Origin: Candidatus Latescibacterota bacterium
GTDB taxonomy: Bacteria; Latescibacterota; UBA2968; UBA8231
Direction: 5' to 3'
NCBI GenBank assembly: GCA_965203175.1
Contig: OZ241867.1
Location: 4,480,001 to 4,544,000, forward strand
Length of the DNA stretch: 64,000 nucleotides
The first letter of the stretch is position 1; the number at the start of each line of letters is the position of its first letter. The notes under the pieces are model-generated. The model did no database searches, was not told the origin of the DNA, and saw only the letters and a program-made list of their open reading frames with translations. Of this stretch, positions 3,397 through 23,181 are shown one piece after another. Position numbers and translations under genes: made by a program.

Positions 3397-4220
3397 TCTG
3401 GGCAAAAATCATTTTGGCCATGGCCTTGCTCGGCTGTGCTGTATGGTATCTTGAACCGGCTGAGTTGCTTGTGGCCGCTGGGCAGGTTGGTAGGGACAAA
3501 GTGCTCATCTGCGGGGCGATTGCCCTAGTGGGCATCGGCGTGCAATGGATAAAATGGCAGCTATTATTGCGCAACCAAATTCCCGAGGTCAATGGGCGCG
3601 ATGCGCTCTATTCGCTGCTGGGTGGCGCAGCCCTCGGTTTGGTGACACCTAGCCGTCTAGGTGAACTAGGACGCGGTGTTTTCTTAGGGCGGAGTCGGGC
3701 CAAGGCCGCATTGCTGACGGCTGTGGATAAGTTGAGTTCGGCTGCGGTCACGTTGGGATTGGGGGCCGCAGCCGCATGGATTTTATGGCCCCATCTCAGG
3801 GGCTTTTTGCTGTTGCTAGTCTGCGTTCTCAGCGTGCTGTTGTATTGGGGCTGGTGCCGTCAGAAGGCGAGCGGGCCGGTTGCATGGGGGACCATTGTCG
3901 GGTTATCCGTCTTGTTCAACGTGGTATTCATGGCGCAATTTTTCTATTTGGTCTCCGCCAGTGTGCCTGCCGACTCAGCCGTCGTATTGGCGGTGCCGGT
4001 GGTATTTGCCCTGAAAACTCTGTTGCCCTTGGGATTTTTGGATCTAGGGGTCCGCGAGGCGGCCGCCATCTTGGTATTTAGCAGCCTCGGCCTAGAGCCG
4101 CAACCCGCTTTTGTGGCTAGTATCCTGATTTTTGTCTGCAATGTGTGCTTGCCGGCTGGCTTGGGCTGGCTGTGGATTGGTAGCCGCCGACTGCGGACGA
4201 TGGGGAAGGTCGCCTCATGA
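3390..4220 (+). CDS. lysylphosphatidylglycerol-synthase TM / flippase-like membrane protein
   Basis: Multiple TM helices, KWQLLL, TPSRLGELGR, LGVREAA. Confidence 0.8.
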   Translation: MVIWAKIILAMALLGCAVWYLEPAELLVAAGQVGRDKVLICGAIALVGIGVQWIKWQLLLRNQIPEVNGRDALYSLLGGAALGLVTPSRLGELGRGVFLGRSRAKAALLTAVDKLSSAAVTLGLGAAAAWILWPHLRGFLLLLVCVLSVLLYWGWCRQKASGPVAWGTIVGLSVLFNVVFMAQFFYLVSASVPADSAVVLAVPVVFALKTLLPLGFLDLGVREAAAILVFSSLGLEPQPAFVASILIFVCNVCLPAGLGWLWIGSRRLRTMGKVAS

Positions 4221-4939
4221 ATTCGGCGTATGCAATAAAAAAAGAAATATGTGAGGTAGGGCACAGGGTCTATCAGCGAGGGTACGTAGCGGCCAATGAC
4301 GGCAATATCAGCGTCCGCGTAGAAGACGACCTAGTGCTGTGTACGCCGACTGGAGTGAGCAAGGGTTTTCTGAGCGCAGACATGCTGGCCACCTGCGATA
4401 TGGAGGGCCAGCAAGTATCGGGGGCAATGAAAATATCGTCGGAAATCCGCATGCACCTCGAAATCTACAAGTTGCGGCCCGATGTCCGCGCAGTTGTCCA
4501 TGCACATCCTCCGACAGCGACCGGTTTTGCCGTCGCTGGCATTGAGCTGACTCAGTGCGTCTTGCCCGAGGTCATCGTCAGCCTTGGGGGTATTCCACTC
4601 GCGGATTACGGCACGCCTGGAGGCCCCGATATCGTCGAGCCGATGAAGCCGCTTTTGCGGCAATACGATGCCGTTTTGATGGCCAATCACGGAGTGGTAA
4701 CCGTGGGCCAGCACGTCATGGATGCCCATTTCAAGATGGAGACTGTCGAACACTTTGCCCAGATAGCCTTGGTCGCACATCAGCTCGGCGGGATACGCAC
4801 GCTTGGGGGCAAAGATGTGGAAGATCTCACGAACCTAAGAAAGCGCTTTGGAATTGGGGATCGACCGTCCTGTGAGATAGCTGGAGAAAGCGATCTAGTC
4901 GAGCGGATTACCAAGGAAGTTATGCGCCAACTGCGCTAG
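4217..4939 (+). CDS. class II aldolase/adducin family protein with C-terminal encapsulation-like peptide
   Basis: ANDGNISVR, TPTGVSKG, SSEIRMH, VHAHPP, MANHG; tail ESDLVERITKEVMRQLR. Confidence 0.9.
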   Translation: MNSAYAIKKEICEVGHRVYQRGYVAANDGNISVRVEDDLVLCTPTGVSKGFLSADMLATCDMEGQQVSGAMKISSEIRMHLEIYKLRPDVRAVVHAHPPTATGFAVAGIELTQCVLPEVIVSLGGIPLADYGTPGGPDIVEPMKPLLRQYDAVLMANHGVVTVGQHVMDAHFKMETVEHFAQIALVAHQLGGIRTLGGKDVEDLTNLRKRFGIGDRPSCEIAGESDLVERITKEVMRQLR

Positions 4940-6126: not shown

Positions 6127-6597
6127 ATGAACGCGGATGACCTGCGCGATGTAGCCGAGCGGCTCGAAGCCTTGGAGTCGCTGGCCAAGCTGTTCAGAAA
6201 TTCATGGCTCGAACACGCCAAGACCCAGATACAGGACGAGAAAATCAGAGCCTATCTGACGGTTTTTGACGACGCCTTTCCAGGGATGGATCACGTCGTC
6301 GAATTCGTGCGCCAAAATGCTCAAGCACTTGCTGCAGGCGAGGATGTCCAAGAAAATTTTGCTGGTTTGGCGCAGGCGCTTCTACAGCGGGAGAGCAAAG
6401 GCTCAGATTCTCTTTCAGTAGAGAACGACGTGGAAGTTATGGCAGAAACCCCTGCTCCCGAGGAACAGGACGACACCAGCGCCGCCGATGAGAACGTCGA
6501 GGACGTGGCCGATGCCGAGCAGGAGGACGAAACAAAACCGACGAGTGATGAAGAAGAGTCGAAAAACGAGGACCAAATAGATGCCCTTTTTGGCTGA
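6127..6597 (+). CDS. hypothetical helical protein with acidic linker and DQIDALFG tail
   Basis: ATG at 6127 preferred over 5995, which would run through the hairpin region; no family recognised. Confidence 0.7.
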   Translation: MNADDLRDVAERLEALESLAKLFRNSWLEHAKTQIQDEKIRAYLTVFDDAFPGMDHVVEFVRQNAQALAAGEDVQENFAGLAQALLQRESKGSDSLSVENDVEVMAETPAPEEQDDTSAADENVEDVADAEQEDETKPTSDEEESKNEDQIDALFG

Positions 6598-6632
6598 ACA
6601 AGCCCTGATTTATCCCAACAGAATGAGCTGGC

Positions 6633-7997
6633 ATGCCCTATTCCTATAATGCCTGGTTCCAGTGCATCAATTGCGACGACGAGCGCTATCCGCTAAACGA
6701 AATAGTCTACCACTGTCAAAAGTGTGAGGGGTTGCTCGAAGTTCGCCACGATATGAAACCCCTACAGCGGCGCTCGGGCGGCGAGTGGCGGACGCTCTTT
6801 GATCAGCGCTACATGAGTTCAGTGCATCCGTATGGGAGTTCGGTTTGGGGCAAGAAAGAGATGGTATGTCCCCTCGTCGAGGACGAAAACGTGGTCTCCA
6901 TGTACGAGGGGGGGAGCAATCTGCTCTGGGCCGAGCGCTTGGGAGCCGAACTGGGCATGGAGGATCTGTGGATAAAGCAGTGCGGCAATAGCCACACGGG
7001 TTCGTTTAAGGACCTAGGCATGACCGTGTTGGTTTCCATGGTCAAGCAGATGATTGCCGAGGGGCAGTCCATACCCGCGGTAGCTTGCGCTTCAACTGGG
7101 GACACCTCGGCGGCGTTGGCCGCGTATTGCGCGGCCGCCGGCATTCCGGCGATCGTCTTATTGCCCAAAGACATGATTTCTACTTCCCAGCTCATCCAGC
7201 CCATAGCCAATGGCGCCTTGACGCTGGCCTTGCGCACCGATTTCGACGGGTGCATGGCCTTGGTGCAGGAAATCTGCCGCCGCGACCAAATCTATCTGGC
7301 TAACTCAATGAATTCGCTCCGCATTGAGGGGCAGAAGACCATCGCGATTGAGCTGTTACAGCAATTTCACTGGGAGGTCCCCGACTGGGTCATTATCCCG
7401 GGCGGCAACCTAGGCAATGTTAGTGCCTTGGGGAAGGGGTTTATCGAAGGCAAGGAAATGGGGCTTATAGACAAGCTGCCGCGCATTGCCGTCGCCCAAG
7501 CAGCCCAGGCCAATCCGCTCTATCTCAGTTATTTAGACGGATTCCGCACCTTTGAGCCGCAAACGGCCCGCGATACCTTGGCCAGCGCCATTAAGATCGG
7601 CAACCCCGTAAGCAGGGAGCGGGCCATGCGCACCTTGCAGCGCTTCGACGGCATCGTCGAAGAGGCCACGGAAGACGAATTGGCCAACGCCTGTGCAAGG
7701 GCCGACCGCAATGGGCTGTTCACCTGTCCTCACACAGGCGTCGCCTTAGCAGCGCTAGAGAAAATGATTGCAGCCGGGCACGTCGAGCCACAGAATCGGG
7801 TGATCGTAATATCTACGGCACACGGGCTAAAGTTCCCAGATTTCAAAGTGAAGTACCACGAAGACCAATTGCGGGAGTTCCACGTCGAGCCACAGCATCG
7901 CAATATGCCCGTTGAGGTCGAAGCTGAATACGAAGCCGTGCATCGGGCTGTCCTCGAAGCTGTAGAGCAGCGGTCGCTGGCCACTGCCCGCCACTGA
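6633..7997 (+). CDS. thrC: threonine synthase (plant-like subfamily)
   Basis: [11 protein letters not shown] (PLP Lys), [38 protein letters not shown]. Confidence 0.95.
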
Positions 7998-10966: not shown

Positions 10967-11128
10967 ATGCCAAGTAAACTGAGTATTTTCTTTGAGTTAT
11001 GGGATTTTATGAAGGTGCGCAAAAAGTGGTGGTTGGGGCCGATATTTGCCACTTTGATCCTGTTAGGGCTGTTAATTGTCACAACCCAAGGATCAGCAGT
11101 AGCCCCGTTTATTTACGCCCTGTTTTAA
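10967..11128 (+). CDS. DUF5989-family small membrane protein, 53 aa; not in ORF track
   Basis: MPSKLSIFFELWDFMKVRKKWWLGPIFATLILLGLLIVTTQGSAVAPFIYALF*. Confidence 0.85.
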   Translation: MPSKLSIFFELWDFMKVRKKWWLGPIFATLILLGLLIVTTQGSAVAPFIYALF

Positions 11129-11154
11129 GTCTTATAACATATAATATGTAAAAT
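11127..11154 (+). repeat. dif-like site A
   Basis: AAGTCTTATAA-CATATA-ATATGTAAAAT; left arm identical to sites B/C. Confidence 0.7.
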
Positions 11155-14961: not shown

Positions 14962-15895
14962 ACTGACTATTAAGGATCTGCTAGCTACCTACGGGCAGCA
15001 ACTACGGCTGAAGCTCATCGCCGGTTCCGAAGGGGTACAGCGGACCATCAACAACAGCGACATCCACCGTCCTGGCCTAGCCCTGACGGGCTTCGTCGAG
15101 CTGTTTACCTTGGATCAAGTACAGCTCTTGGGCAATACCGAAGCGGAGTATCTGCGCAGCTTACCCCCAGACCGACGGCGGCAGGCCCTCAAAATCATAT
15201 ACCAATTCGATATTCCATGCGTGGTCTTGACCGGTAGGGGACGGGTGTACTCTGAGTTGCGGGAGCTAGCCGATGAGTGCGCGGTCCCACTGCTGAAGTC
15301 TGGATTCAACACGGCCGAGTTTACCCATCTCATCCGCTTTTACCTCGACGAGGTGTTCTCGCCCCAAGTGTCCATGCATGGTACGTTGGTCGATGTCTCT
15401 GGAGTAGGGTTACTTTTTCGCGGCCGCAGTGGTATTGGCAAAAGCGAAGTCGCCTTGGATTTGGTCGAGCGCGGGCATCGGTTGGTGGCCGACGATGTGG
15501 TCATCATTAACCGCAAGCCCCAAGGCATTTTGGTGGGGTGTAGCTCGGAGATGCTCCAAGATCACATCGAAATTCGCGGCATCGGCATCCTAGACGTAAA
15601 AAAGATGTTTGGCGCGTGGAGGACTCGGCGGCAGAAGCGGGTGGAGGTATTGGTCAACCTCGTCGATTGGGACGAAAAATATGCCTACGAACGCCTTGGC
15701 CTCGAAGATAATAAAGTGGTAATCCTCGGTGTCGAGGTGCCCGAGGTCTTCATACCGCTATTTCCCGGTAAAAATATCACGGTACTCGCCGAGGCTATAG
15801 CGATAGATTATCTCTTGCGCTTGGACGGGGATTACGCGGCACGGACATTTAGCCAGCGGCTCCAGGAGCGAATTAAGATGGGCAAAAAACCATGA
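14954..15895 (+). CDS. hprK: HPr kinase/phosphorylase
   Basis: RPGLALTG, HGTLVDV, GRSGIGKSE, RGHRLVADD, EIRGIGI. Confidence 0.95.
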   Translation: MNELTIKDLLATYGQQLRLKLIAGSEGVQRTINNSDIHRPGLALTGFVELFTLDQVQLLGNTEAEYLRSLPPDRRRQALKIIYQFDIPCVVLTGRGRVYSELRELADECAVPLLKSGFNTAEFTHLIRFYLDEVFSPQVSMHGTLVDVSGVGLLFRGRSGIGKSEVALDLVERGHRLVADDVVIINRKPQGILVGCSSEMLQDHIEIRGIGILDVKKMFGAWRTRRQKRVEVLVNLVDWDEKYAYERLGLEDNKVVILGVEVPEVFIPLFPGKNITVLAEAIAIDYLLRLDGDYAARTFSQRLQERIKMGKKP

Positions 15896-16692
15896 TGACG
15901 CTTGGCGTAGCAGGCCATGCCCTCGAGGTAGCCGTGCATCAGGATGCTTTGCAAAGCTGCGGCGATATTCAGTTCGTGCACCAATCTGATTGCGCTGCGG
16001 TCTTGGAAGAAAAAATAGACGGCCTGGTGATATTGCACGTGGAAGACAAATCGCATTGGATAGGAGCGGCCGTGGCAGCCGGTCTTCACGTCATGGCCTC
16101 CCATCCCGTCCAGGAGCCGTTTGCAAACAGCCATCCCAATGTGTGCGTGCTTTCACTGGGGAGGCATACGCACTTTTGCACAGCTTTGACCGCTCAGCAA
16201 GGGGTAGCGCATTACTCTCTAGAGCTTTCTTTTGCTTCGGCTCTATTCGATCCCATCAACCGCGATATGATCTACAACCAGGCGGCCTTGGACATATGCG
16301 ACCTGTTGCTGAGCACTTGGGGACGGGTAGATATGCTGTACAGCAGGATGCGCAACTTTTTTCACCCTGGGCGCATGGAGGACGTGTCGATTGCGCTACT
16401 GAGGATGCGCAACGGAGTCGAAGGCTCGGTTTCATTCATGGACTTTCCGGCTGTGGCTCCGGCTTTGCGAGTCCGCTTGTATGCACAGGACGAAATGGTC
16501 GATACGTCTTGGCCTTGGGTGTGGGAAGCGGACGATCTGGCGGCGTATTATCGCAATTTTGTCGCCTGTATCCAAGGACGAGCCCAACCGCTGTTGGATT
16601 TGGCACAGGTCGCTGAAAGCTATCGTCTCTTGGAATGGATGCGCATGTCGGCGAGGCAAGATATGGTTTTAAATCGCAAGCAAGTAAAATAA
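15892..16692 (+). CDS. hypothetical protein, divergent Gfo/Idh/MocA-like
   Basis: AVAAGLHV, EDVSIALLRMRNGVEGSV, FVACIQG resemble the Gfo/Idh/MocA layout, but GxG and EKP motifs are absent. Confidence 0.55.
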   Translation: MMTLGVAGHALEVAVHQDALQSCGDIQFVHQSDCAAVLEEKIDGLVILHVEDKSHWIGAAVAAGLHVMASHPVQEPFANSHPNVCVLSLGRHTHFCTALTAQQGVAHYSLELSFASALFDPINRDMIYNQAALDICDLLLSTWGRVDMLYSRMRNFFHPGRMEDVSIALLRMRNGVEGSVSFMDFPAVAPALRVRLYAQDEMVDTSWPWVWEADDLAAYYRNFVACIQGRAQPLLDLAQVAESYRLLEWMRMSARQDMVLNRKQVK

Positions 16693-16693
16693 A

Positions 16694-16721
16694 AAGTCTT
16701 ATAAAATATTTTATGTAAACA
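16694..16721 (+). repeat. dif-like site B (left copy of 34-bp inverted repeat 16692-16725)
   Basis: AAGTCTTATAA-AATATT-TTATGTAAACA; right arm 10/11 to the B. subtilis dif arm TTATGTAAACT. Confidence 0.85.
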
Positions 16722-16732
16722 AAAAATCTATA

Positions 16733-17257
16733 ATGAATACACCATCCTCACCACCTACATACTTCGCTCTTGGGTTGGCAAGCTTCTTGTTAGCAATTGT
16801 GTTATTGTTCAACATGCTCAGTCCTATGGCTGTGCCAGTTACCAGAGAGCAGTTCGATCAGATAAAAGAGGCCGATCTCATCGAGTCTCTGATTGTGCAA
16901 CCCCGAGGATTTACTTGGCAACTCAAAAGGGCCGTGAGAGTCCAGGGGACCAACGGCGAGACACTAGCCAAGCGGGTCGCGCTAGTAGAGCCAGACCCAG
17001 CCGTAGGCGAAGATTGGCAACAAAAGGGAGGAGCGGTGCGCCACGAGCAAGATAACTCGTGGTGGGGTGGGGCAGTCTTCATCGCCTTGTTACTCGGCGT
17101 GGGGGGATGGCATATCTGGTCCCAAATACGGTTAGATCTCAAAGGGGGAGGGGGGCCGCGCCGCCGCTTGCGCGACCTGGAAACCGCGCTTAAACAAGGC
17201 AAAATTACCCAAGCCGAATTCCGGCAGCAGGCCGAGCGGCTCTGGGCCGAATTGTGA
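16733..17257 (+). CDS. two-TM membrane protein (FtsH-extracellular-like N-terminus, SHOCT-like C-terminus)
   Basis: Two hydrophobic helices; tail LRDLETALKQGKITQAEFRQQAERL. Confidence 0.65.
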   Translation: MNTPSSPPTYFALGLASFLLAIVLLFNMLSPMAVPVTREQFDQIKEADLIESLIVQPRGFTWQLKRAVRVQGTNGETLAKRVALVEPDPAVGEDWQQKGGAVRHEQDNSWWGGAVFIALLLGVGGWHIWSQIRLDLKGGGGPRRRLRDLETALKQGKITQAEFRQQAERLWAEL

Positions 17258-17263
17258 GGAGCT

Positions 17264-19054
17264 ATGGCGAGTACCATTCGCGTTCTCGACGAAAGTCTCA
17301 TTGGAAAAATCGCCGCCGGTGAGGTAGTGGAGCGACCAGCTTCGGTCGTGAAGGAATTGGTCGAAAACTCGATCGATTCGGGTGCCGCTAAAATCCGCGT
17401 GGAAATCAAGGCCGGTGGCAAGCAGTCAATTGTCGTGACCGACGATGGTTCGGGCATGAACAGAGAGGATATCGCTTTGTGCGTGCGCCGGCACGCCACG
17501 AGTAAGATGGCCTCGGTAGCCGATCTGTTCTGCATTCAGACGCTGGGGTTTCGCGGCGAAGCCCTAGCTAGCATTGGTGCGGTAGCCCACTTGGCGATAG
17601 AATCACGTGCGAGGGAAGACGAAGCCGGAACGCGCTTGGTCGTGGAAGGGGGAATAGAGCGGGAGATGCACAGCATTGGCCGAGCGCGCGGCACAGCCAT
17701 TGTAGTAAACAACCTGTTCTTTAATACGCCCGCGCGGCGCAAGTTTCTCCGGTCCGTCGATACGGAAGCTCGCCACGTGGCGCAGACCATAATTCATCTA
17801 GCCGCTGGCTACCCGGCCCTTGGCTTTGAACTAGAGCACCAAGATCGCCAAGTATTGAACTACGCCCCGGCGTCTCGTCGGGAGCGCGCGGCCGAGTTGC
17901 TGGGTGTTCCAGTCGCCAAACTGTTGGATCTCGCTCACGAGGAGGAGGGTCTCAAAATCGAAGGAGTCTTAGCCGGTCCCGAGCACTGCGGCCGGAGCAA
18001 GGGCAAGCAGTATCTCATCGTACAGGGGCGCCCCATCTCTTCGCGACTGATGGCCAGTGCTATACAGCGGTGTTTTGAGGGGCTGCTGCCCGAAGGGCGT
18101 CATCCAGTATTCATGCTCTGGATCGATATGGATCCTAAGAAAATCGACGTCAACGTCCATCCGACGAAGCGGGAGATTCGCTTGGCCAACGAAGGGCAGG
18201 TCATCGCGGCTATTGAGAACAGCGTCCGGCAGAGCTTGCGCCTGCCCGATGTACAATCCTTTGTCTATGCTGCGGCTCCAATGCTGCGGCCGGACAGCAC
18301 TCCTCGCTTCAGCGGGGACAGCAGTACTGCAGGTGGCGAGCCAATACCGGTGCGCGTGGGAGAACCAGCGTCACCGGTATTGCAAAGGATGCCTGCGTCC
18401 GGCGAGCCTGGGGTAGCGGCAACCCGTGATGCCGACGATCAGCTCGCCCTGACCTTCGTCGCTCCAGCCGTCAAACTCGCCGTCGCCGAAAACGCCGCGA
18501 TGTGGCAGGTCCACAACCAGTATATCCTCGTCGAAGTAGCCGATGGCCTACTCTTCGTCGACCAGCAAGCTGCACACGAACGCATCAACTACGATCGGGC
18601 CATGGAGCAAATAGACGGCGTAGCCGGAGAAAGCCAGCAGTTGCTCTTTCCCATACAGCTAGAAATGGGCGCGGCGGATTTCGAGACCCTCAACCAAGTG
18701 CGGGACGATATTGCCAAGCTGGGATTTGTCGTGCGAGATTTTGGCGCGCGGACGGTGTTGGTGGAAGCTGTGCCGGCCGAATTGGATCGCTTTGGCGATG
18801 GCGATGTTTTTTATCAGCTATTGAACGACGTGCGCGATGCCCAGAATTCGGGCCGACCTTGGCGCGAAGCGCTCGTCTTAGCTTACGCGCGCAAAGCTAG
18901 TATCAAGAAAGGCCAGAAACTGAACTCCGAGGAAATGATACACTTAATCAACGAATTGCTAAAGGCCGACTCGCCGCACATAAGCCCAACGGACAAGCCG
19001 ATTATGGCGAGGATGAAATTAAGCGATATGGAGCGTTTATTGCGGAGATTCTAG
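17264..19054 (+). CDS. mutL: DNA mismatch repair protein MutL
   Basis: IAAGEVVERP, KELVENSIDSG, GFRGEALASI, DVNVHPTK, QQLLFP. Confidence 0.97.
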   Translation: MASTIRVLDESLIGKIAAGEVVERPASVVKELVENSIDSGAAKIRVEIKAGGKQSIVVTDDGSGMNREDIALCVRRHATSKMASVADLFCIQTLGFRGEALASIGAVAHLAIESRAREDEAGTRLVVEGGIEREMHSIGRARGTAIVVNNLFFNTPARRKFLRSVDTEARHVAQTIIHLAAGYPALGFELEHQDRQVLNYAPASRRERAAELLGVPVAKLLDLAHEEEGLKIEGVLAGPEHCGRSKGKQYLIVQGRPISSRLMASAIQRCFEGLLPEGRHPVFMLWIDMDPKKIDVNVHPTKREIRLANEGQVIAAIENSVRQSLRLPDVQSFVYAAAPMLRPDSTPRFSGDSSTAGGEPIPVRVGEPASPVLQRMPASGEPGVAATRDADDQLALTFVAPAVKLAVAENAAMWQVHNQYILVEVADGLLFVDQQAAHERINYDRAMEQIDGVAGESQQLLFPIQLEMGAADFETLNQVRDDIAKLGFVVRDFGARTVLVEAVPAELDRFGDGDVFYQLLNDVRDAQNSGRPWREALVLAYARKASIKKGQKLNSEEMIHLINELLKADSPHISPTDKPIMARMKLSDMERLLRRF

Positions 19055-19076
19055 TTTTCTATTTAATCTGGCCATG

Positions 19077-19108
19077 ATACTAACGATAACAGGCATTATC
19101 AATAGTAT
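19077..19108. promoter_or_regulatory. near-palindromic 13-6-13 putative tyrosine recombinase site
   Basis: ATACTAACGATAA-CAGGCA-TTATCAATAGTAT, arms 11/13 inverted, 99 bp upstream of the recombinase. Confidence 0.65.
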
Positions 19109-19207
19109 AAAAACTAGGCGAATCCCTTGTGAAACGCGGCGGCAAAATTCCGCGATGTTCGCTATATTTGGGACATTAGACACCAATTAAGCCCCAGCGA
19201 GCATTTT

Positions 19208-20182
19208 ATGAGTCAGACACTCAATCCGGTCGTCCGCAGGCTAACGCCAACACCAGCGTTGGTAGCGGACGATCCTTTGGAACAATTTCTCAGTGGCCAA
19301 CTCAGCGAGCGCACTCGGCGCGCTTATTACGCCGACCTCCAGCATTTCTTTTTTTCTATCGGCATGGAACTAAATGAAGTATCGCTCACCGTCTTGCAGT
19401 CAATCACCTTTGAGCACGTGGTCGCCTTTAGAAATCAGCTCGCCAGCGAAGGTTATAAGCGCAGCAGCATCAACAGAAAATTGTCCAGCCTGAAGTCGTT
19501 GTTCAAGATGCTGGTCGCCTTAGGTCACATCGAGAAGAATCCCGCTGACTCTACGTTGGTGCGCGGTTATAAAGTGGACGAAACCCTAGCTGGCAAGGCG
19601 CTTTCCAATCAGGTGCTGAACAAGATCCAGCAAGCCATTGCCGAGGAAAAAGACGATTTGGTTCGCACGCGCGATGCAGCCATGTTTCATTTGCTTACAT
19701 TCGGCGGCCTGCGCCGCTCTGAAGTGGCTGGCATCGCTTGGGAGGATATATCCTTGGAGGGCGTCTTTTATATCCTGCATCTCCCCGAGACTAAATCGGG
19801 CGTGGCGCAGGATATAAAACTGCAAAACGTCGTCCTGCATCATCTCGAATTATACAAAGAACAATTACAGGCGGCGGGCTTGCCGACGACTGGCAAGGTC
19901 TTCATCAGCCTGTCGCGCAACCAATCTCGCGGTCAGCCGCTGACTGACCAATCGGTAAATCACGTCGTTAAGAAGTACGCTATGCGCGCTGGCCTCCCCC
20001 AGAACGTCACCGCGCATATGTTCCGCCACACGTGCTGTACTCTGGCGATTGAAGGCGGAGCTAAGCCCCAGCAAGTGCAAGCCCATTTGCGCCACAAGGA
20101 TCTAAAGACGACGATGCGTTACTACGAGAATCGCGAAAAGCTGCTCGATAATGCGTCTGATTACATTAATATTGGTAGTTGA
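19208..20182 (+). CDS. Xer-like tyrosine recombinase
   Basis: SAM-like N-domain (SERTRRAYYADL, SSINRKLSSLKSLF); catalytic R (GLRRSE), K (ETKSG), HMFRH, LRH, TMRYY. Confidence 0.93.
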   Translation: MSQTLNPVVRRLTPTPALVADDPLEQFLSGQLSERTRRAYYADLQHFFFSIGMELNEVSLTVLQSITFEHVVAFRNQLASEGYKRSSINRKLSSLKSLFKMLVALGHIEKNPADSTLVRGYKVDETLAGKALSNQVLNKIQQAIAEEKDDLVRTRDAAMFHLLTFGGLRRSEVAGIAWEDISLEGVFYILHLPETKSGVAQDIKLQNVVLHHLELYKEQLQAAGLPTTGKVFISLSRNQSRGQPLTDQSVNHVVKKYAMRAGLPQNVTAHMFRHTCCTLAIEGGAKPQQVQAHLRHKDLKTTMRYYENREKLLDNASDYINIGS

Positions 20183-20229
20183 TGTTTTTTGTTTTGTAGG
20201 CGGATTTTTTTCTTCGGCTTCTTTCTTTT

Positions 20230-20257
20230 TGTTTACATAAAATATTTTATAAGACTT
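20230..20257 (-). repeat. dif-like site C (right copy of 34-bp inverted repeat 20226-20259)
   Basis: Reverse complement AAGTCTTATAA-AATATT-TTATGTAAACA, identical to site B. Confidence 0.85.
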
Positions 20258-20276
20258 TTAAGGTTTGTATTGATTT

Positions 20277-23162
20277 CTATACCACAATATTGACAATTTT
20301 ATTCGGTACCCATATAAACCGCTTTATCGCCGCTTCATCGGCTACGTATTTCTGAATGCTCTCCATGTCGAGCACCAAGGACTTTATCTCTTCCTCTCCA
20401 GTGCGAACCGGTACTTCGACTTGTCCGCGCATTTTGCCGTTGACCTGAATAGGCACTACGATCATGTCCTCGGCGGCCTTGGCAGCATCCCAGTCAGGCC
20501 AGTTCTGACGACTGAGGTCTCCTCTCCCAAAGCCCGCCATTTCCCATAGCTCCTCGGCAATATGCGGAGCAAAGGGCGCGAGCAGGTTCAAGAAAGGCTT
20601 GGCAACAGCCTGCGGTACTTCGCCTAAGGACACCAACAGGTTATTTAACTCGATCAAGGCGGCAATAGCCGTATTAAACCGCAGCCCCTCTATATCCTCA
20701 GTTACCTTTTGAATGGTTTGGTGCAGCTTTCTTTCTAGCTCCGGTGCCAACGCAGCGCTCTCCCCTATTCTCACACGTCGATCTGAATCGACAAAGTTGC
20801 GCCACACGCGCTGTAAGAAGCGCTGCATCCCGCGAATGCCTTCCATGCTCCACGGCGCACTCGCTTCGAGCGGCCCCATGTACATTTCGTACAACCGCAA
20901 GGTATCCACGCCAAACTCCTCGCCGACTTCTTCGGGCGGTAGCCCGTTTTTGTAGCGTTTACCCATCTTGCCAGAAGAACGGTGCAGCGTCTTCCCTGTC
21001 TCCTTCTCAACAGGCTCCCCGTCGCGGAACTCAACCTCGCGGATGTCGATATACACGCCGCGGTCGTCCTGAAAGGCATCTGCGGTCATCATGCCTTGGT
21101 TAAACAGCTTCTTAAACGGCTCGGGGGTAGATACGTGGCCTAAGTCATAGAGGGCCTTGTGCCAAAACCGAGCGTAGAGCAAGTGCAACACAGCGTGTTC
21201 AGCGCCGCCGATGTAGAGATCGACGGGCATGAAGTAGCCCTCCTTAGCCAAGTCGCAGAAGGCTTCTTCGTTGTGCGGATCAATAAAACGGAGATAGTAC
21301 CAGCAAGAACCGGCCCATTGGGGCATGACGTTGAGTTCGCGCTGGCAGGCTATTCCGTCAATTTCCACCGTCGTCCACTCCGCTCCGGCCCGGTGCAGCG
21401 GCGGCGAAACGGGTTGAGTGGGATCGTCGGAGGTCTCCGGCCTAAAATCTTCTAGGTCCGGCAGCGCCACTGGAGGCCCAACCGCAACAGAATATCCATC
21501 AGGATGCGTAGCCAGTGGAAAGGGTTCGCCCCAATAGCGCTGTCGAGCAAAAGTCCAGTCGCGCAGTTTGTAGTTTACTGCAGCTTGGCCTCGCCCCTCG
21601 GCGACTAGTGCGGCGACGATCTGGGATTTGGCCACGGCCGTCGCCAATCCGTTAATGGCGTATGGATTATCGCCGCCCAGTACTGGAGGCGAGTTGATGG
21701 CGGTTCCCTCCCCGGTATACCACCCTTCGACCTTTCCTTCCCCTCCAGTAACTACCTTCACAATGTCCAAGTTATAGGCGGTGGCAAAGGCGAAATCGCG
21801 CTCGTCGTGAGCCGGCACCGCCATAATGGCCCCCGCGCCGTAATCCATGCTGACGTAGTCGGCGACGAAAATGGGGATTTTTTGTCCATTGACTGGATTG
21901 CGGGCGTAGATGCCGGAGAAAATGCCCGTTTTTTCTTTGGTCTCATCCGCAGTGGAGACAGCAACCTGCGCTATGTACTGGGCTATAGCTTCCCGGATGG
22001 ATCCCCCTCCTCCCTTCCACTGATCCGGCGTCCCGTCGGGCCAAGCACTGGGAACCAAATAGGCTTCCTCGGCCGGGTCCACCAGCGGATGCTGAGGGGC
22101 AAGGGCCATAAAGGTCGCTCCAAAGAGCGTATCGGGGCGGGTTGTGAACACGAGCAACTGCCCGGCGACCGCGTCGCTTTGCGGGTCGAGGACATCAAAG
22201 CACACTTCAGCTCCTTCGCTGCGACCAATCCAGTTGCGCTGCATCCGTTTGATCGGTTCTGGCCAATCGAGCCGGAAGGACGCGCCGTTGCGGTCCTCCA
22301 GTTCAAAGTCCAAGTCCTCTAAGAGCCGCTCGGCGTAGGCTGTTATACGCATCGTCCATTGTCGCAACGGTTTGCGGTATACGGGAAAATCTCCCCGCTC
22401 GCTGCGGCCTTCGTTGGTTACCTCCTCGTTGGCCAACACAGTGCCCAAGCCGGGACACCAGTTGACGACGGCCTCTTGCTGGTACGCCAGCCGGTAGTTG
22501 TTCAGCACGGTTTGACGCTCGGCCGCAGTTAGTGCGGACCAGGCTTTATCAGTGCCAAGAACTTGACGGCCTGCTGCCGACAAAGCCCTGCCCGCCGCAA
22601 ATTGGGCCTCTAAGTCGGCGATGGGCTTAGCCCGTCCCTTTATTTGGCGTCCATTGCCGTCTTCCCAGATCTCGTCTTCGTCGAAATAACTATCGAATAG
22701 CTGGGTGAAAATCCACTGAGTCCAGCGGTAGTACGACGCCCGCGACGTGACCACTTCGCGGGCCCAATCAAACGAGAGTCCAAGAAACTGCAATTGGCTG
22801 CGCATCGCATCGATATTCTGCTCTGTTACAGCCGCTGGATGGATGTTGTGTTCGATCGCGTATTGCTCGGCCGGCAAGCCAAAACTGTCGAACCCCATCG
22901 GATGCAGGACGTTAAATCCCTGCATCCTTTTGTAGCGACTGTAGATGTCGCTGGCGATATACCCCTTGGGATGGCCGATGTGCAGCCCTGCTCCGCTTGG
23001 ATAGGGAAACATATCAAGGATGTAGCACTTTGGTTTGTTGTGGTCGAAACCGCGGTCTCCCGGCCCCAGTGTTTGATAGGTCTTTTCTTGCTCCCAATGG
23101 GACCGCCATTTGGTTTCGATGGCTTGAAAATTGTATTGGCCTTTTTTTGTTTTGATTGACAT
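20277..23162 (-). CDS. leuS: leucine--tRNA ligase
   Basis: DMFPYPSGAGLHIGH, FTTRPDT, GGAEHAVLHLLY, KMGKR, QVNGK. Confidence 0.97.
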   Translation of the reverse strand: MSIKTKKGQYNFQAIETKWRSHWEQEKTYQTLGPGDRGFDHNKPKCYILDMFPYPSGAGLHIGHPKGYIASDIYSRYKRMQGFNVLHPMGFDSFGLPAEQYAIEHNIHPAAVTEQNIDAMRSQLQFLGLSFDWAREVVTSRASYYRWTQWIFTQLFDSYFDEDEIWEDGNGRQIKGRAKPIADLEAQFAAGRALSAAGRQVLGTDKAWSALTAAERQTVLNNYRLAYQQEAVVNWCPGLGTVLANEEVTNEGRSERGDFPVYRKPLRQWTMRITAYAERLLEDLDFELEDRNGASFRLDWPEPIKRMQRNWIGRSEGAEVCFDVLDPQSDAVAGQLLVFTTRPDTLFGATFMALAPQHPLVDPAEEAYLVPSAWPDGTPDQWKGGGGSIREAIAQYIAQVAVSTADETKEKTGIFSGIYARNPVNGQKIPIFVADYVSMDYGAGAIMAVPAHDERDFAFATAYNLDIVKVVTGGEGKVEGWYTGEGTAINSPPVLGGDNPYAINGLATAVAKSQIVAALVAEGRGQAAVNYKLRDWTFARQRYWGEPFPLATHPDGYSVAVGPPVALPDLEDFRPETSDDPTQPVSPPLHRAGAEWTTVEIDGIACQRELNVMPQWAGSCWYYLRFIDPHNEEAFCDLAKEGYFMPVDLYIGGAEHAVLHLLYARFWHKALYDLGHVSTPEPFKKLFNQGMMTADAFQDDRGVYIDIREVEFRDGEPVEKETGKTLHRSSGKMGKRYKNGLPPEEVGEEFGVDTLRLYEMYMGPLEASAPWSMEGIRGMQRFLQRVWRNFVDSDRRVRIGESAALAPELERKLHQTIQKVTEDIEGLRFNTAIAALIELNNLLVSLGEVPQAVAKPFLNLLAPFAPHIAEELWEMAGFGRGDLSRQNWPDWDAAKAAEDMIVVPIQVNGKMRGQVEVPVRTGEEEIKSLVLDMESIQKYVADEAAIKRFIWVPNKIVNIVV

Positions 23163-23181
23163 AATTATCCTTATAAGACAT
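23154..23181 (-). repeat. dif-like site D
   Basis: Reverse complement ATGTCTTATAA-GGATAA-TTATGTCAATC; fills the asnS-leuS gap and overlaps the leuS ATG. Confidence 0.75.

Follow-up and report, generated by a model that had tools for sequence, protein, structure and literature searches.

The 64,000-nt stretch of DNA analyzed here (the window) spans positions 4,480,001 to 4,544,000 of contig OZ241867.1 in the 6,579,469-bp, single-contig genome of a Candidatus Latescibacterota bacterium (GCA_965203175.1), and holds a three-gene cassette, tm174-mutL-rec, that lies between two mirror-image copies of a dif-type site, which we term sites B and C (Table 1). The genes to its left, from apt to rsgA-hprK-unk266, run rightwards like the cassette itself, and those to its right, pnp-asnS-leuS, run leftwards, with the direction switching at the cassette. 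This cassette is found in both orientations among close relatives of the bacterium, and it is a real, recurrently flipping chromosomal dif module.

Table 1. Genes and dif-type sites at the locus (window coordinates unless stated otherwise)
Feature	Position	Strand	Description
Site A	~11127-11154	+	17 of 17 arm positions, other centre; between the stop of a small open reading frame and the start of apt (11153); orientation as site B
unk266, left flank	15892-16692	+	266 aa; last gene of the co-directional run apt ... rsgA-hprK-unk266; stop abuts site B
Site B (upstream, 'U' site)	16692-16725	+	XerC-type outer arm, AT-only centre, XerD-type inner arm towards the cassette
tm174	16733-17257	+	174 aa, two hydrophobic stretches (by eye); first cassette gene
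mutL	17264-19054	+	MutL_C, DNA_mis_repair and HATPase_c_3 domains; TIGR00585, 480 bits
rec	19208-20182	+	Third, divergent Xer-family tyrosine recombinase, 324 aa; Phage_integrase and SAM-like N-terminal domain
Site C (downstream, 'D-type' site)	20226-20259	-	Mirror-image identical copy of site B; in the sole convergent gap (rec stop / leuS stop)
leuS, right flank	20277-23162	-	Last gene of the co-directional run pnp-asnS-leuS
Site D	~23154-23181	-	16 of 17 arm positions; between asnS stop and leuS start, leuS ATG inside the inner arm; orientation as site C
Weaker dif-like site, membership uncertain	37598-37621	-	15 of 17 arm positions; miaA start codon inside the inner arm
Weaker dif-like site	genome position 4473598, 6.4 kb left of the window	+	Same polarity rule as the other sites (see text)

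Sites B and C form a perfect inverted repeat of 34 nt (100% complementary, arms 3500 nt apart), at the positions and with exactly the letters reported in an earlier note on this DNA, which had been made from the sequence alone. The 25-nt core of the repeat occurs twice in the window against 0.00 expected from 100 dinucleotide shuffles, and with a 19-nt core and up to two mismatches allowed, the two sites are the sole matches in the whole genome. Both are intergenic, have a G+C content of 14% against 59% for the genome, and parse as AAGTCTTATAA / AATATT / TTATGTAAACA. This is the architecture of dif: about 28 nt made up of two 11-nt arms with partial dyad symmetry and a 6-8-nt centre, with the conserved inner motifs ..ATAA / TTATG.. 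and with the arm on the XerD side the better conserved of the two, as compared with PMC2731167, from which we took the criteria of position, composition and arm pattern, and with the table of XerC-site, spacer and XerD-site of plasmid dif (pdif) sites in PMC13141974 (Table 1 therein), with which the arm pattern agrees. The centre AATATT is its own reverse complement, and the claim of the earlier note that only B and C have a common centre holds: the further strong copies of the arms, sites A and D, have other centres. Its distances stood in part. The ATG of tm174 (16733) indeed lies 11 nt past the 28-nt dif core of site B, directly 5' of that start, which is 7 nt past the 34-bp arm; the stop of leuS (20277-20279) is 17 nt from the arm of site C and not 19 as claimed. 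On the other side, 44 nt separate the stop of rec from site C.

Domain searches and alignment also bore out the earlier description of the enclosed genes as a membrane protein gene, mutL and a catalytically complete recombinase. The mutL gene is single-copy, with one PF01119 match in the whole genome (G000). The product of tm174 has neither a Pfam match above cut-off nor an NCBIfam match, and the gene accompanies the cassette in all close relatives. In Rec the catalytic residues R169, K204, H270, R273, H296 and Y305 are all invariant in the alignment, and the catalytic block is near-identical among orthologues of 60-67% identity. Its closest solved structure is E. coli XerD (1a0p). Because it scores only 131 bits on the NCBIfam XerC model (cut-off 335) and the genome also encodes XerD (344 bits, above the cut-off of 329.6) and a XerC-like protein (318 bits, just under the cut-off of 335), we regard it as a divergent third Xer paralogue. 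FtsK is encoded too, with a gamma domain (FtsK_gamma, 99 bits), and completes the machinery that is expected to act on dif, with the XerC-like protein falling just under its cut-off, and XerD and the XerC-like protein are kept in relatives as well. The locus thus has the layout of an invertible element of the tyrosine-recombinase kind, in that inverted repeats bound a segment with the gene for such a recombinase inside. In some relatives the cassette carries extra genes: in L074 an ankyrin-repeat protein is encoded between mutL and rec (6316-6696, +), and L104 has cassette open reading frames without any Pfam family at 3547-4329, 6652-7374 and 7381-7686 (+).

The fate of the cassette among relatives was followed over 17 kb around rec in 20 relatives, in 53 loci from a species-representative collection (overlapping the 20) and in 32 metagenome loci. 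These relatives are Candidatus Latescibacterota metagenome-assembled genomes (MAGs), many of them from sponge metagenomes and many of them complete chromosomes. Some records titled Gemmatimonadetes/Gemmatimonadota, Gemmatimonas or Magnetovibrio (L059, L077, L080, L082, L084, L100 and others) group with Latescibacterota by gene order and tree, and their titles are probably labelling or binning errors. Rec orthologues of 77-97% identity are present in 22 of the 24 other genomes of the genus. We defined the close clade by a Rec at least 89% identical, which gives 26 genomes including that of the window (the locus of L077 was too short to score, and the contig of L076 begins inside mutL). In all 26 the cassette occupies the same chromosomal locus between constant flanks, and 15 have it in the orientation of the window and 11 in the inverse one. 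In the inverted genomes leuS is directly upstream of tm174, which follows it with nothing in between other than the site, and the rec end faces unk266 as its new neighbor. The flip that the earlier note had put forward as a possibility, together with its predicted product, a mutL unit directly behind leuS, is therefore realized in 11 of the 26 close relatives, and the orientation across related genomes, which it had proposed comparing, is not fixed. The flank gene unk266, for which no Pfam or NCBIfam family was found, is itself conserved beside hprK across the close clade (75-94% identity).

To place the flips on a phylogeny that is independent of the cassette, we used a maximum-likelihood tree of flanking proteins only (those of rsgA, hprK, leuS, asnS and pnp), built by a quick search with support from the Shimodaira-Hasegawa-like approximate likelihood ratio test (SH-aLRT) only. 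On the tree of 28 rows the orientations need six changes, of which at least five are forced by well-supported branches; on that of 30 rows they need seven, with at least six forced. With shuffled labels on this larger tree the mean is 9.1 changes, and 51-53 of 500 shuffles come out as low as observed; since the observed count is this near to the shuffled-label range, orientation is barely tied to phylogeny. Two sister pairs, L069/L070 and L063/L064, differ in orientation at 100% SH-aLRT. Site B, like the pair as a whole, is kept in 24 of the 25 assessable close genomes, and homologues of site C come after the rec stop in close relatives; among more distant genomes, the strict pattern scan, which sets the limit of detection, picked them up in some. 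In one complete genome (L072, the same as G009 and L048) the site after rec is lost, leaving 25 nt between the stops of rec and leuS, and its cassette should be locked in the window-type orientation.

Since all of these genomes are MAGs, and word-based contigs do break at the repeat in two metagenome runs (X1 and X17), the two orientations might be taken to reflect mis-assembly across the inverted repeat. We consider this scarcely credible: both orientations are found among complete long-read, single-contig chromosomes of 4-7 Mb, the repeat is mostly imperfect and at most 30 nt long, far below the read or word lengths that confuse assemblers, and the orientation agrees between independent collections for the same records.

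Contigs from the same species bear on whether its populations differ in orientation. Four of 23 metagenome runs were examined, as assembled contigs only, so that rare variants are invisible. In the run X18, pieces match the window at 99-100% identity, with 0-5 differences per 318-1117 nt, and two of the contigs have opposite-strand joints, 16691->20259 at a depth of 51.5 and 16721->20232 at a depth of 53.8, the second with a 1-nt offset. These are both junctions of the inverted state, at a depth that equals that of neighboring sequence, in contigs whose word length we take to be 31 letters. They make a good, though not conclusive, case for populations of one species differing in orientation. 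In X2, which represents a relative, one piece spans 16335-17143 and thus shows the window-type junction at site B.

The junctions themselves locate the exchange. When they are aligned, the 28 nt outside each site go with the neighboring gene, be it unk266 or leuS, and the centre, the inner arm and the inner flank go with the cassette end, that of tm174 or that of rec; the exchange thus falls within the sites, each of at most 30 nt. Across the clade the arms are almost invariant and the centres and the surrounding intergenic letters drift, a pattern that would be expected of protein-binding half-sites. For 20 of 23 genomes, the longest run over which the two sites agree in register measures 8-20 nt, a short stretch for RecA-dependent recombination; only in the window are 30 of 30 positions identical between them. 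These features bear on the proposal that the cassette is flipped by RecA-dependent homologous recombination between short inverted repeats, with no site-specific enzyme and with an incidental resemblance to dif. It could draw on the perfect 34-bp repeat of the window and on L063/L064, where an outer-arm variant moves together with the cassette, as would be allowed if crossovers could occur at any point of the repeat. However, at least six independent flips all end in the sites despite such short identical runs, and near-invariant arms amid drifting centres and flanks are the signature of a protein-binding site; we thus view homologous recombination as highly improbable. Site-specific inversion at sites B and C, in contrast, appears very probable to us from these comparisons.

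More can be said of where in the site the strands would be exchanged. The centres of the two sites are identical in six of 23 genomes against 1.9 expected (permutation, P=0.005, uncorrected for kinship), and in the window, L057, L067 and L121 the same outer-arm variant appears at either end of the cassette; L075 shares it in part, with an additional change next to it at its upstream site. These shared variants and the excess of identical centres indicate that the two sites exchange information, i.e. that they evolve in concert. In the sister pair L069/L070 the centre stays with the inner arm though the two centres differ at four of six positions, and by parsimony flips probably took place between unlike centres, which suggests that exchange between such sites is tolerated. 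Arm conservation limits the mapping of the crossover to the interval from the outer arm to the edge between arm and centre, and from the junctions, in which centre and inner arm stay with the cassette, the exchange appears to lie in the outer arm or at its edge. In the phage VGJ-phi, an exchange on the XerC side tolerates centres that do not match towards the XerD side (PMC5357621).

These observations can be brought together in the following explanation, which we hold to be likely overall. Sites B and C each pair an outer arm of XerC type (11 nt) with an inner arm of XerD type (11 nt) around a 6-7-nt centre of A and T only, and they stand as mirror images at the junction of the replication arms. 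Site-specific recombination between them would invert the 3.5-kb cassette tm174-mutL-rec, with the enzyme on the outer arm exchanging one pair of strands, followed by replication or by resolution of the Holliday junction, as in FtsK-independent Xer reactions; a full two-step reaction, which needs identical spacers, would not fit the junctions. The catalyst would be the third Xer paralogue of the cassette itself, possibly with XerD on the inner arm. On this last point we are evenly divided: what speaks for rec is genomic linkage, in that, throughout the phylum, it is the one gene that such sites constantly enclose or adjoin.

That linkage is seen best beyond the genus. In Latescibacterota, Rec orthologues of 58-97% identity adjoin a dif-like site, and for those of 58-79% identity the order mutL-rec is kept beside a convergent leuS. 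The strict pattern scan placed rec next to a dif-like site in about a dozen of the more distant loci and detected no site in many others; in part of the loci of 58-79% identity the site comes after the rec stop. The content of the bracketed segment varies: an inverted pair encloses rec alone in L080, L105, L125 and L128, mutL-rec in L088, where the second site precedes mutL, and unk266-tm174-mutL-rec in L122, where it precedes unk266. L109, like L122, has its second site upstream of unk266, L126 has a site before rec with none detected after it, and in L081 and L151 only rec is turned round with respect to mutL. Since rec is the constant content of the bracketed segment across genera, mutL looks like cargo in this genus. 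The outgroups G015 and G017 have the same gene order without the upstream site, and from these comparisons the cargo and its order are ancestral. We also considered whether leuS had been relocated in L081 (G041) by excision between sites C and D. In this distant genome the locus lacks leuS, but a different leuS is present elsewhere, which amounts to a replacement and demonstrates no movement of a module; it encodes a protein of 45% identity in a frame of 844 aa and lies about 670 kb away on the same contig. The bracketing of leuS by sites C and D is a side observation that we list with L081 and with L115/L116.

Sites B and C stand at what appears to be the terminus of replication. The cumulative GC skew of the whole genome reaches its one global maximum at 4,499,000 (position 19,000 of the window), a point within the cassette, and its origin-like minimum lies near 2.0 Mb (200-kb profile, circle unwrapped), with a plateau from 1.2 to 2.0 Mb. 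With a terminus at 4.50 Mb and the origin-like minimum at ~2.0 Mb, the replication arms would be unequal, of about 2.5 and 4.1 Mb. As in dif, the sites are located at the skew maximum, in non-coding DNA of low G+C. In a genome-wide scan for further sites, in which both arms alone were scored (17 positions), just four sites reached at least 16 of 17, and all of these cluster around the skew maximum, no more than 12 kb away from it, the left-hand pair being (+) and the right-hand pair (-). Thus, in place of a single dif per chromosome, there are two identical copies and two further strong copies within 12 kb. With the weaker sites included, those on the left are all (+) and those on the right all (-), such that the XerD-type arm always points towards the terminus. 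Sites C and D, which have unlike centres, bracket leuS as direct repeats (20226-23181). Site D is present in all 20 genus relatives scanned with the strict pattern, and a site like A was found beyond rsgA in eight of 24 close-relative loci, all eight being in the inverted state with a fetched stretch that reaches so far; four of the eight have the window's centre. The dif-like sites A, D and 37598 each overlap, or closely precede, the start codon of a gene in the same orientation (apt, leuS and miaA, respectively), and in sites A and B the ATG of the arm is immediately followed by TAA. No RNA family reached its gathering score between 10000 and 25000.

The placement of sites immediately upstream of or across start codons (sites A, B, D and 37598, co-oriented with apt, tm174, leuS and miaA) is what might be expected if they were mainly cis-regulatory, i.e. 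operators or roadblocks for a Xer-like DNA-binding protein, with inversion as a rare by-product. We consider such a primary role very unlikely, as site C follows a stop codon in a convergent gap, the flips are frequent, and the confinement of just four strong sites in 6.58 Mb to the skew maximum points to a terminus function.

As for the consequences of the flip, the cassette, which had closed the rsgA-hprK-unk266 run at its 3' end, comes to close the pnp-asnS-leuS run instead, and the single head-on gap, which is beside the rec stop, moves to the opposite side of the cassette. Whichever way the cassette lies, a co-directional gene ends a few tens of nt before tm174 begins, and nothing but the site intervenes. 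The cassette would thus appear to be transcribed by read-through in both states, with the flip at most altering the level of mutL and rec and providing no off state. An attempt to use the skew within the cassette as a clock of its flips was abandoned, as transcription-linked and replication-linked skew are inseparable over 3.5 kb.

The earlier note had suggested a mismatch-repair expression switch as one outcome of the flip. In its fuller form, the inversion would be selected for changing the expression of the only mutL, yielding reversible states of high and low mutation or recombination. The presence of the single mutL inside the cassette, the difference between the operons upstream of it in the two states (rsgA-hprK versus pnp-asnS-leuS), the frequency of flips relative to speciation and the keeping of both sites under selection in 24 of 25 genomes would all be in line with this. 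Yet a co-directional housekeeping operon precedes mutL in both states, which makes ON/OFF switching unlikely, the inverted pair excludes mutL in the other genera represented by L080, L105, L125 and L128, and no excess of promoter-like matches was seen on either side. The suggestion is hence not supported, and we rate a selected, phase-variable switch as improbable.

Several points weigh against the explanation set out above. First, the centres are unlike in 17 of the 23 genomes, which would block XerCD acting in the usual way, and the pdif inversions observed in experiments took place only between spacers that were identical or differed by one letter (PMC13141974). Second, in L063/L064 the outer-arm variant, TCC, stays with the cassette, which implies that the crossover fell within the 4-5 outermost nt of the site, or else that gene conversion took place, and misfits a clean cut between arm and centre. 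Third, as regards the same-species contigs, the pieces from X1 and X17 end 30 nt into each arm (16721/16696 and 20255/20230), which leaves their orientation unreadable, and that the repeat is imperfect in the X18 strain, which would allow contigs to cross it, is suggested by the 1-nt offset alone. Fourth, a consensus scan of 15800-20600, with sigma-70-like promoters only, found five promoter-like matches against 3.9 expected and seven terminator-like ones against 5.5; with no excess of either, the scan speaks neither for nor against an internal promoter, and it is gene spacing by itself that speaks for read-through. Finally, XerCD alone could suffice for the inversion, as XerC, XerD and FtsK-gamma are present and the inner arm is of the canonical XerD type.

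This last point is at the core of the most serious alternative, namely that B and C are a double dif served by XerCD only: both would be ordinary dimer-resolution sites, their inversion an occasional neutral side reaction, and rec would have another task or be redundant. The sites do have the position, composition and arm pattern of dif in a genome that encodes XerD, a XerC-like protein and FtsK-gamma, and inversions between opposite XerC/D sites are known from Acinetobacter plasmids (PMC5790767, PMC13141974), where, as in the window, the centres are identical. However, the flips deduced for L069/L070, with centres that differ at four of six positions, go beyond the reported tolerance. This alternative also leaves unexplained why rec, across orthologues of 58-97% identity, invariably lies next to the sites or is enclosed by them, and why the pair encloses rec alone in several genera. 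Further, no rec orthologue was found in 16 genomes of the class's other families, each of which has at least two XerC/XerD-like matches and in which the best match to Rec, of 27-30% identity, is to XerC/D-like paralogues (their dif sites were not examined). We therefore see the XerCD-only account as possible though rather unlikely, and retain inversion at B and C with an exchange at the outer arm as the favored explanation.

Among published systems, the closest parallel is with the pdif 'D modules' of Acinetobacter Rep_3 plasmids, and the likeness to Acinetobacter dif modules drawn in the earlier note proved apt, as the XerD-type arms are internal in the cassette, which is the geometry of a D module (PMC13141974). 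In both cases a block of a few kb lies between oppositely oriented XerC/XerD-type sites with internal XerD-type arms and an arm pattern of ..TATAA / 6 nt / TTATGT.AA.. (PMC13141974, PMC5790767), and in both, related replicons hold it one way round or the other, with the crossover points falling within the sites. However, the Acinetobacter modules, as described there, are plasmid-borne, mobile between replicons and devoid of their own recombinase, whereas the cassette is chromosomal, fixed at the terminus, not seen to pass from one replicon to another, and made up of core genes and its own recombinase, and its flips would have taken place between centres that differ at several positions. XerS/difSL of streptococci and lactococci and XerH/difH of Helicobacter and Campylobacter likewise place a xer gene beside a dif-type site at the terminus (PMC5357621, PMC2731167). 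In those organisms one enzyme stands in place of XerCD and acts on one atypical site, whereas here XerD, a XerC-like protein and FtsK-gamma are encoded too, the arms are canonical and two sites face each other as mirror images. In the Mollicutes, Xer-family invertases such as XerC of Ureaplasma parvum at the mba locus also invert chromosomal DNA between short inverted repeats (PMC3599477). Those loci, however, switch surface-antigen genes away from dif, with another paralogue binding dif, whereas in the present case the repeats are themselves dif-type terminus sites and the cargo is a repair gene with the recombinase.

The FtsK-independent Xer reactions of CTX-phi and VGJ-phi (PMC5357621) resemble the putative pathway here in that our junctions are consistent with an exchange on the XerC side only, with the centres staying with the XerD-type arm. 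These phages integrate or excise between directly repeated sites, whereas our sites are in inverted orientation, no element integrates there, and only the comparison of junctions points to the pathway. In an integrative mobile element exploiting Xer (IMEX), a foreign element is found between directly repeated dif sites; in the cassette the sites are inverted and the gene order is ancestral. Tyrosine recombinases also act on promoter invertons, such as the fim-type switch, in which a short promoter-bearing segment is flipped between inverted repeats to give ON and OFF states. Unlike these, the cassette is 3.5 kb long, has no detected promoter and looks expressed in both states. Our search of the literature, from which supplementary tables were left out (those of PMC2731167 might list multi-dif genomes), found no terminus cassette bounded by inverted dif sites, nor this recombinase.

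Most likely, the flip-flop is a fast, tolerated and nearly neutral property of a 'double-dif' terminus module. A more far-reaching proposal would see in it a self-flipping terminus module, made of a third Xer and a mirror-image pair of dif sites, that has captured the only mutL in this sponge-associated genus, with each flip re-wiring mutL between two differently regulated housekeeping operons and shifting the junction of the replichores, so as to give heritable and reversible variation in the level of mismatch repair, i.e. a bet-hedging switch for mutation or recombination; the terminus as a whole would then be built of 'dif modules' A-B, B-C and C-D around leuS. We regard this as a speculative and improbable extension.

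The site dif is usually described as one per chromosome, with dimer resolution as its sole job. In contrast, this candidate phylum keeps two, and locally four, dif-type sites at the terminus, with an extra Xer paralogue between them and an orientation that is almost unlinked to phylogeny. The dif modules by which Acinetobacter plasmids shuffle resistance genes thus have a chromosomal counterpart here, with core genes as cargo, and the system allows one to ask what the role of the third Xer is, how inverted dif sites are tolerated where FtsK acts, and whether the re-wiring of mutL changes the mutation rate in uncultured sponge symbionts. Even if the flip is merely neutral, it would still clearly mark Xer-type inversion activity in nature and call for care in strain-level assembly of the terminus.

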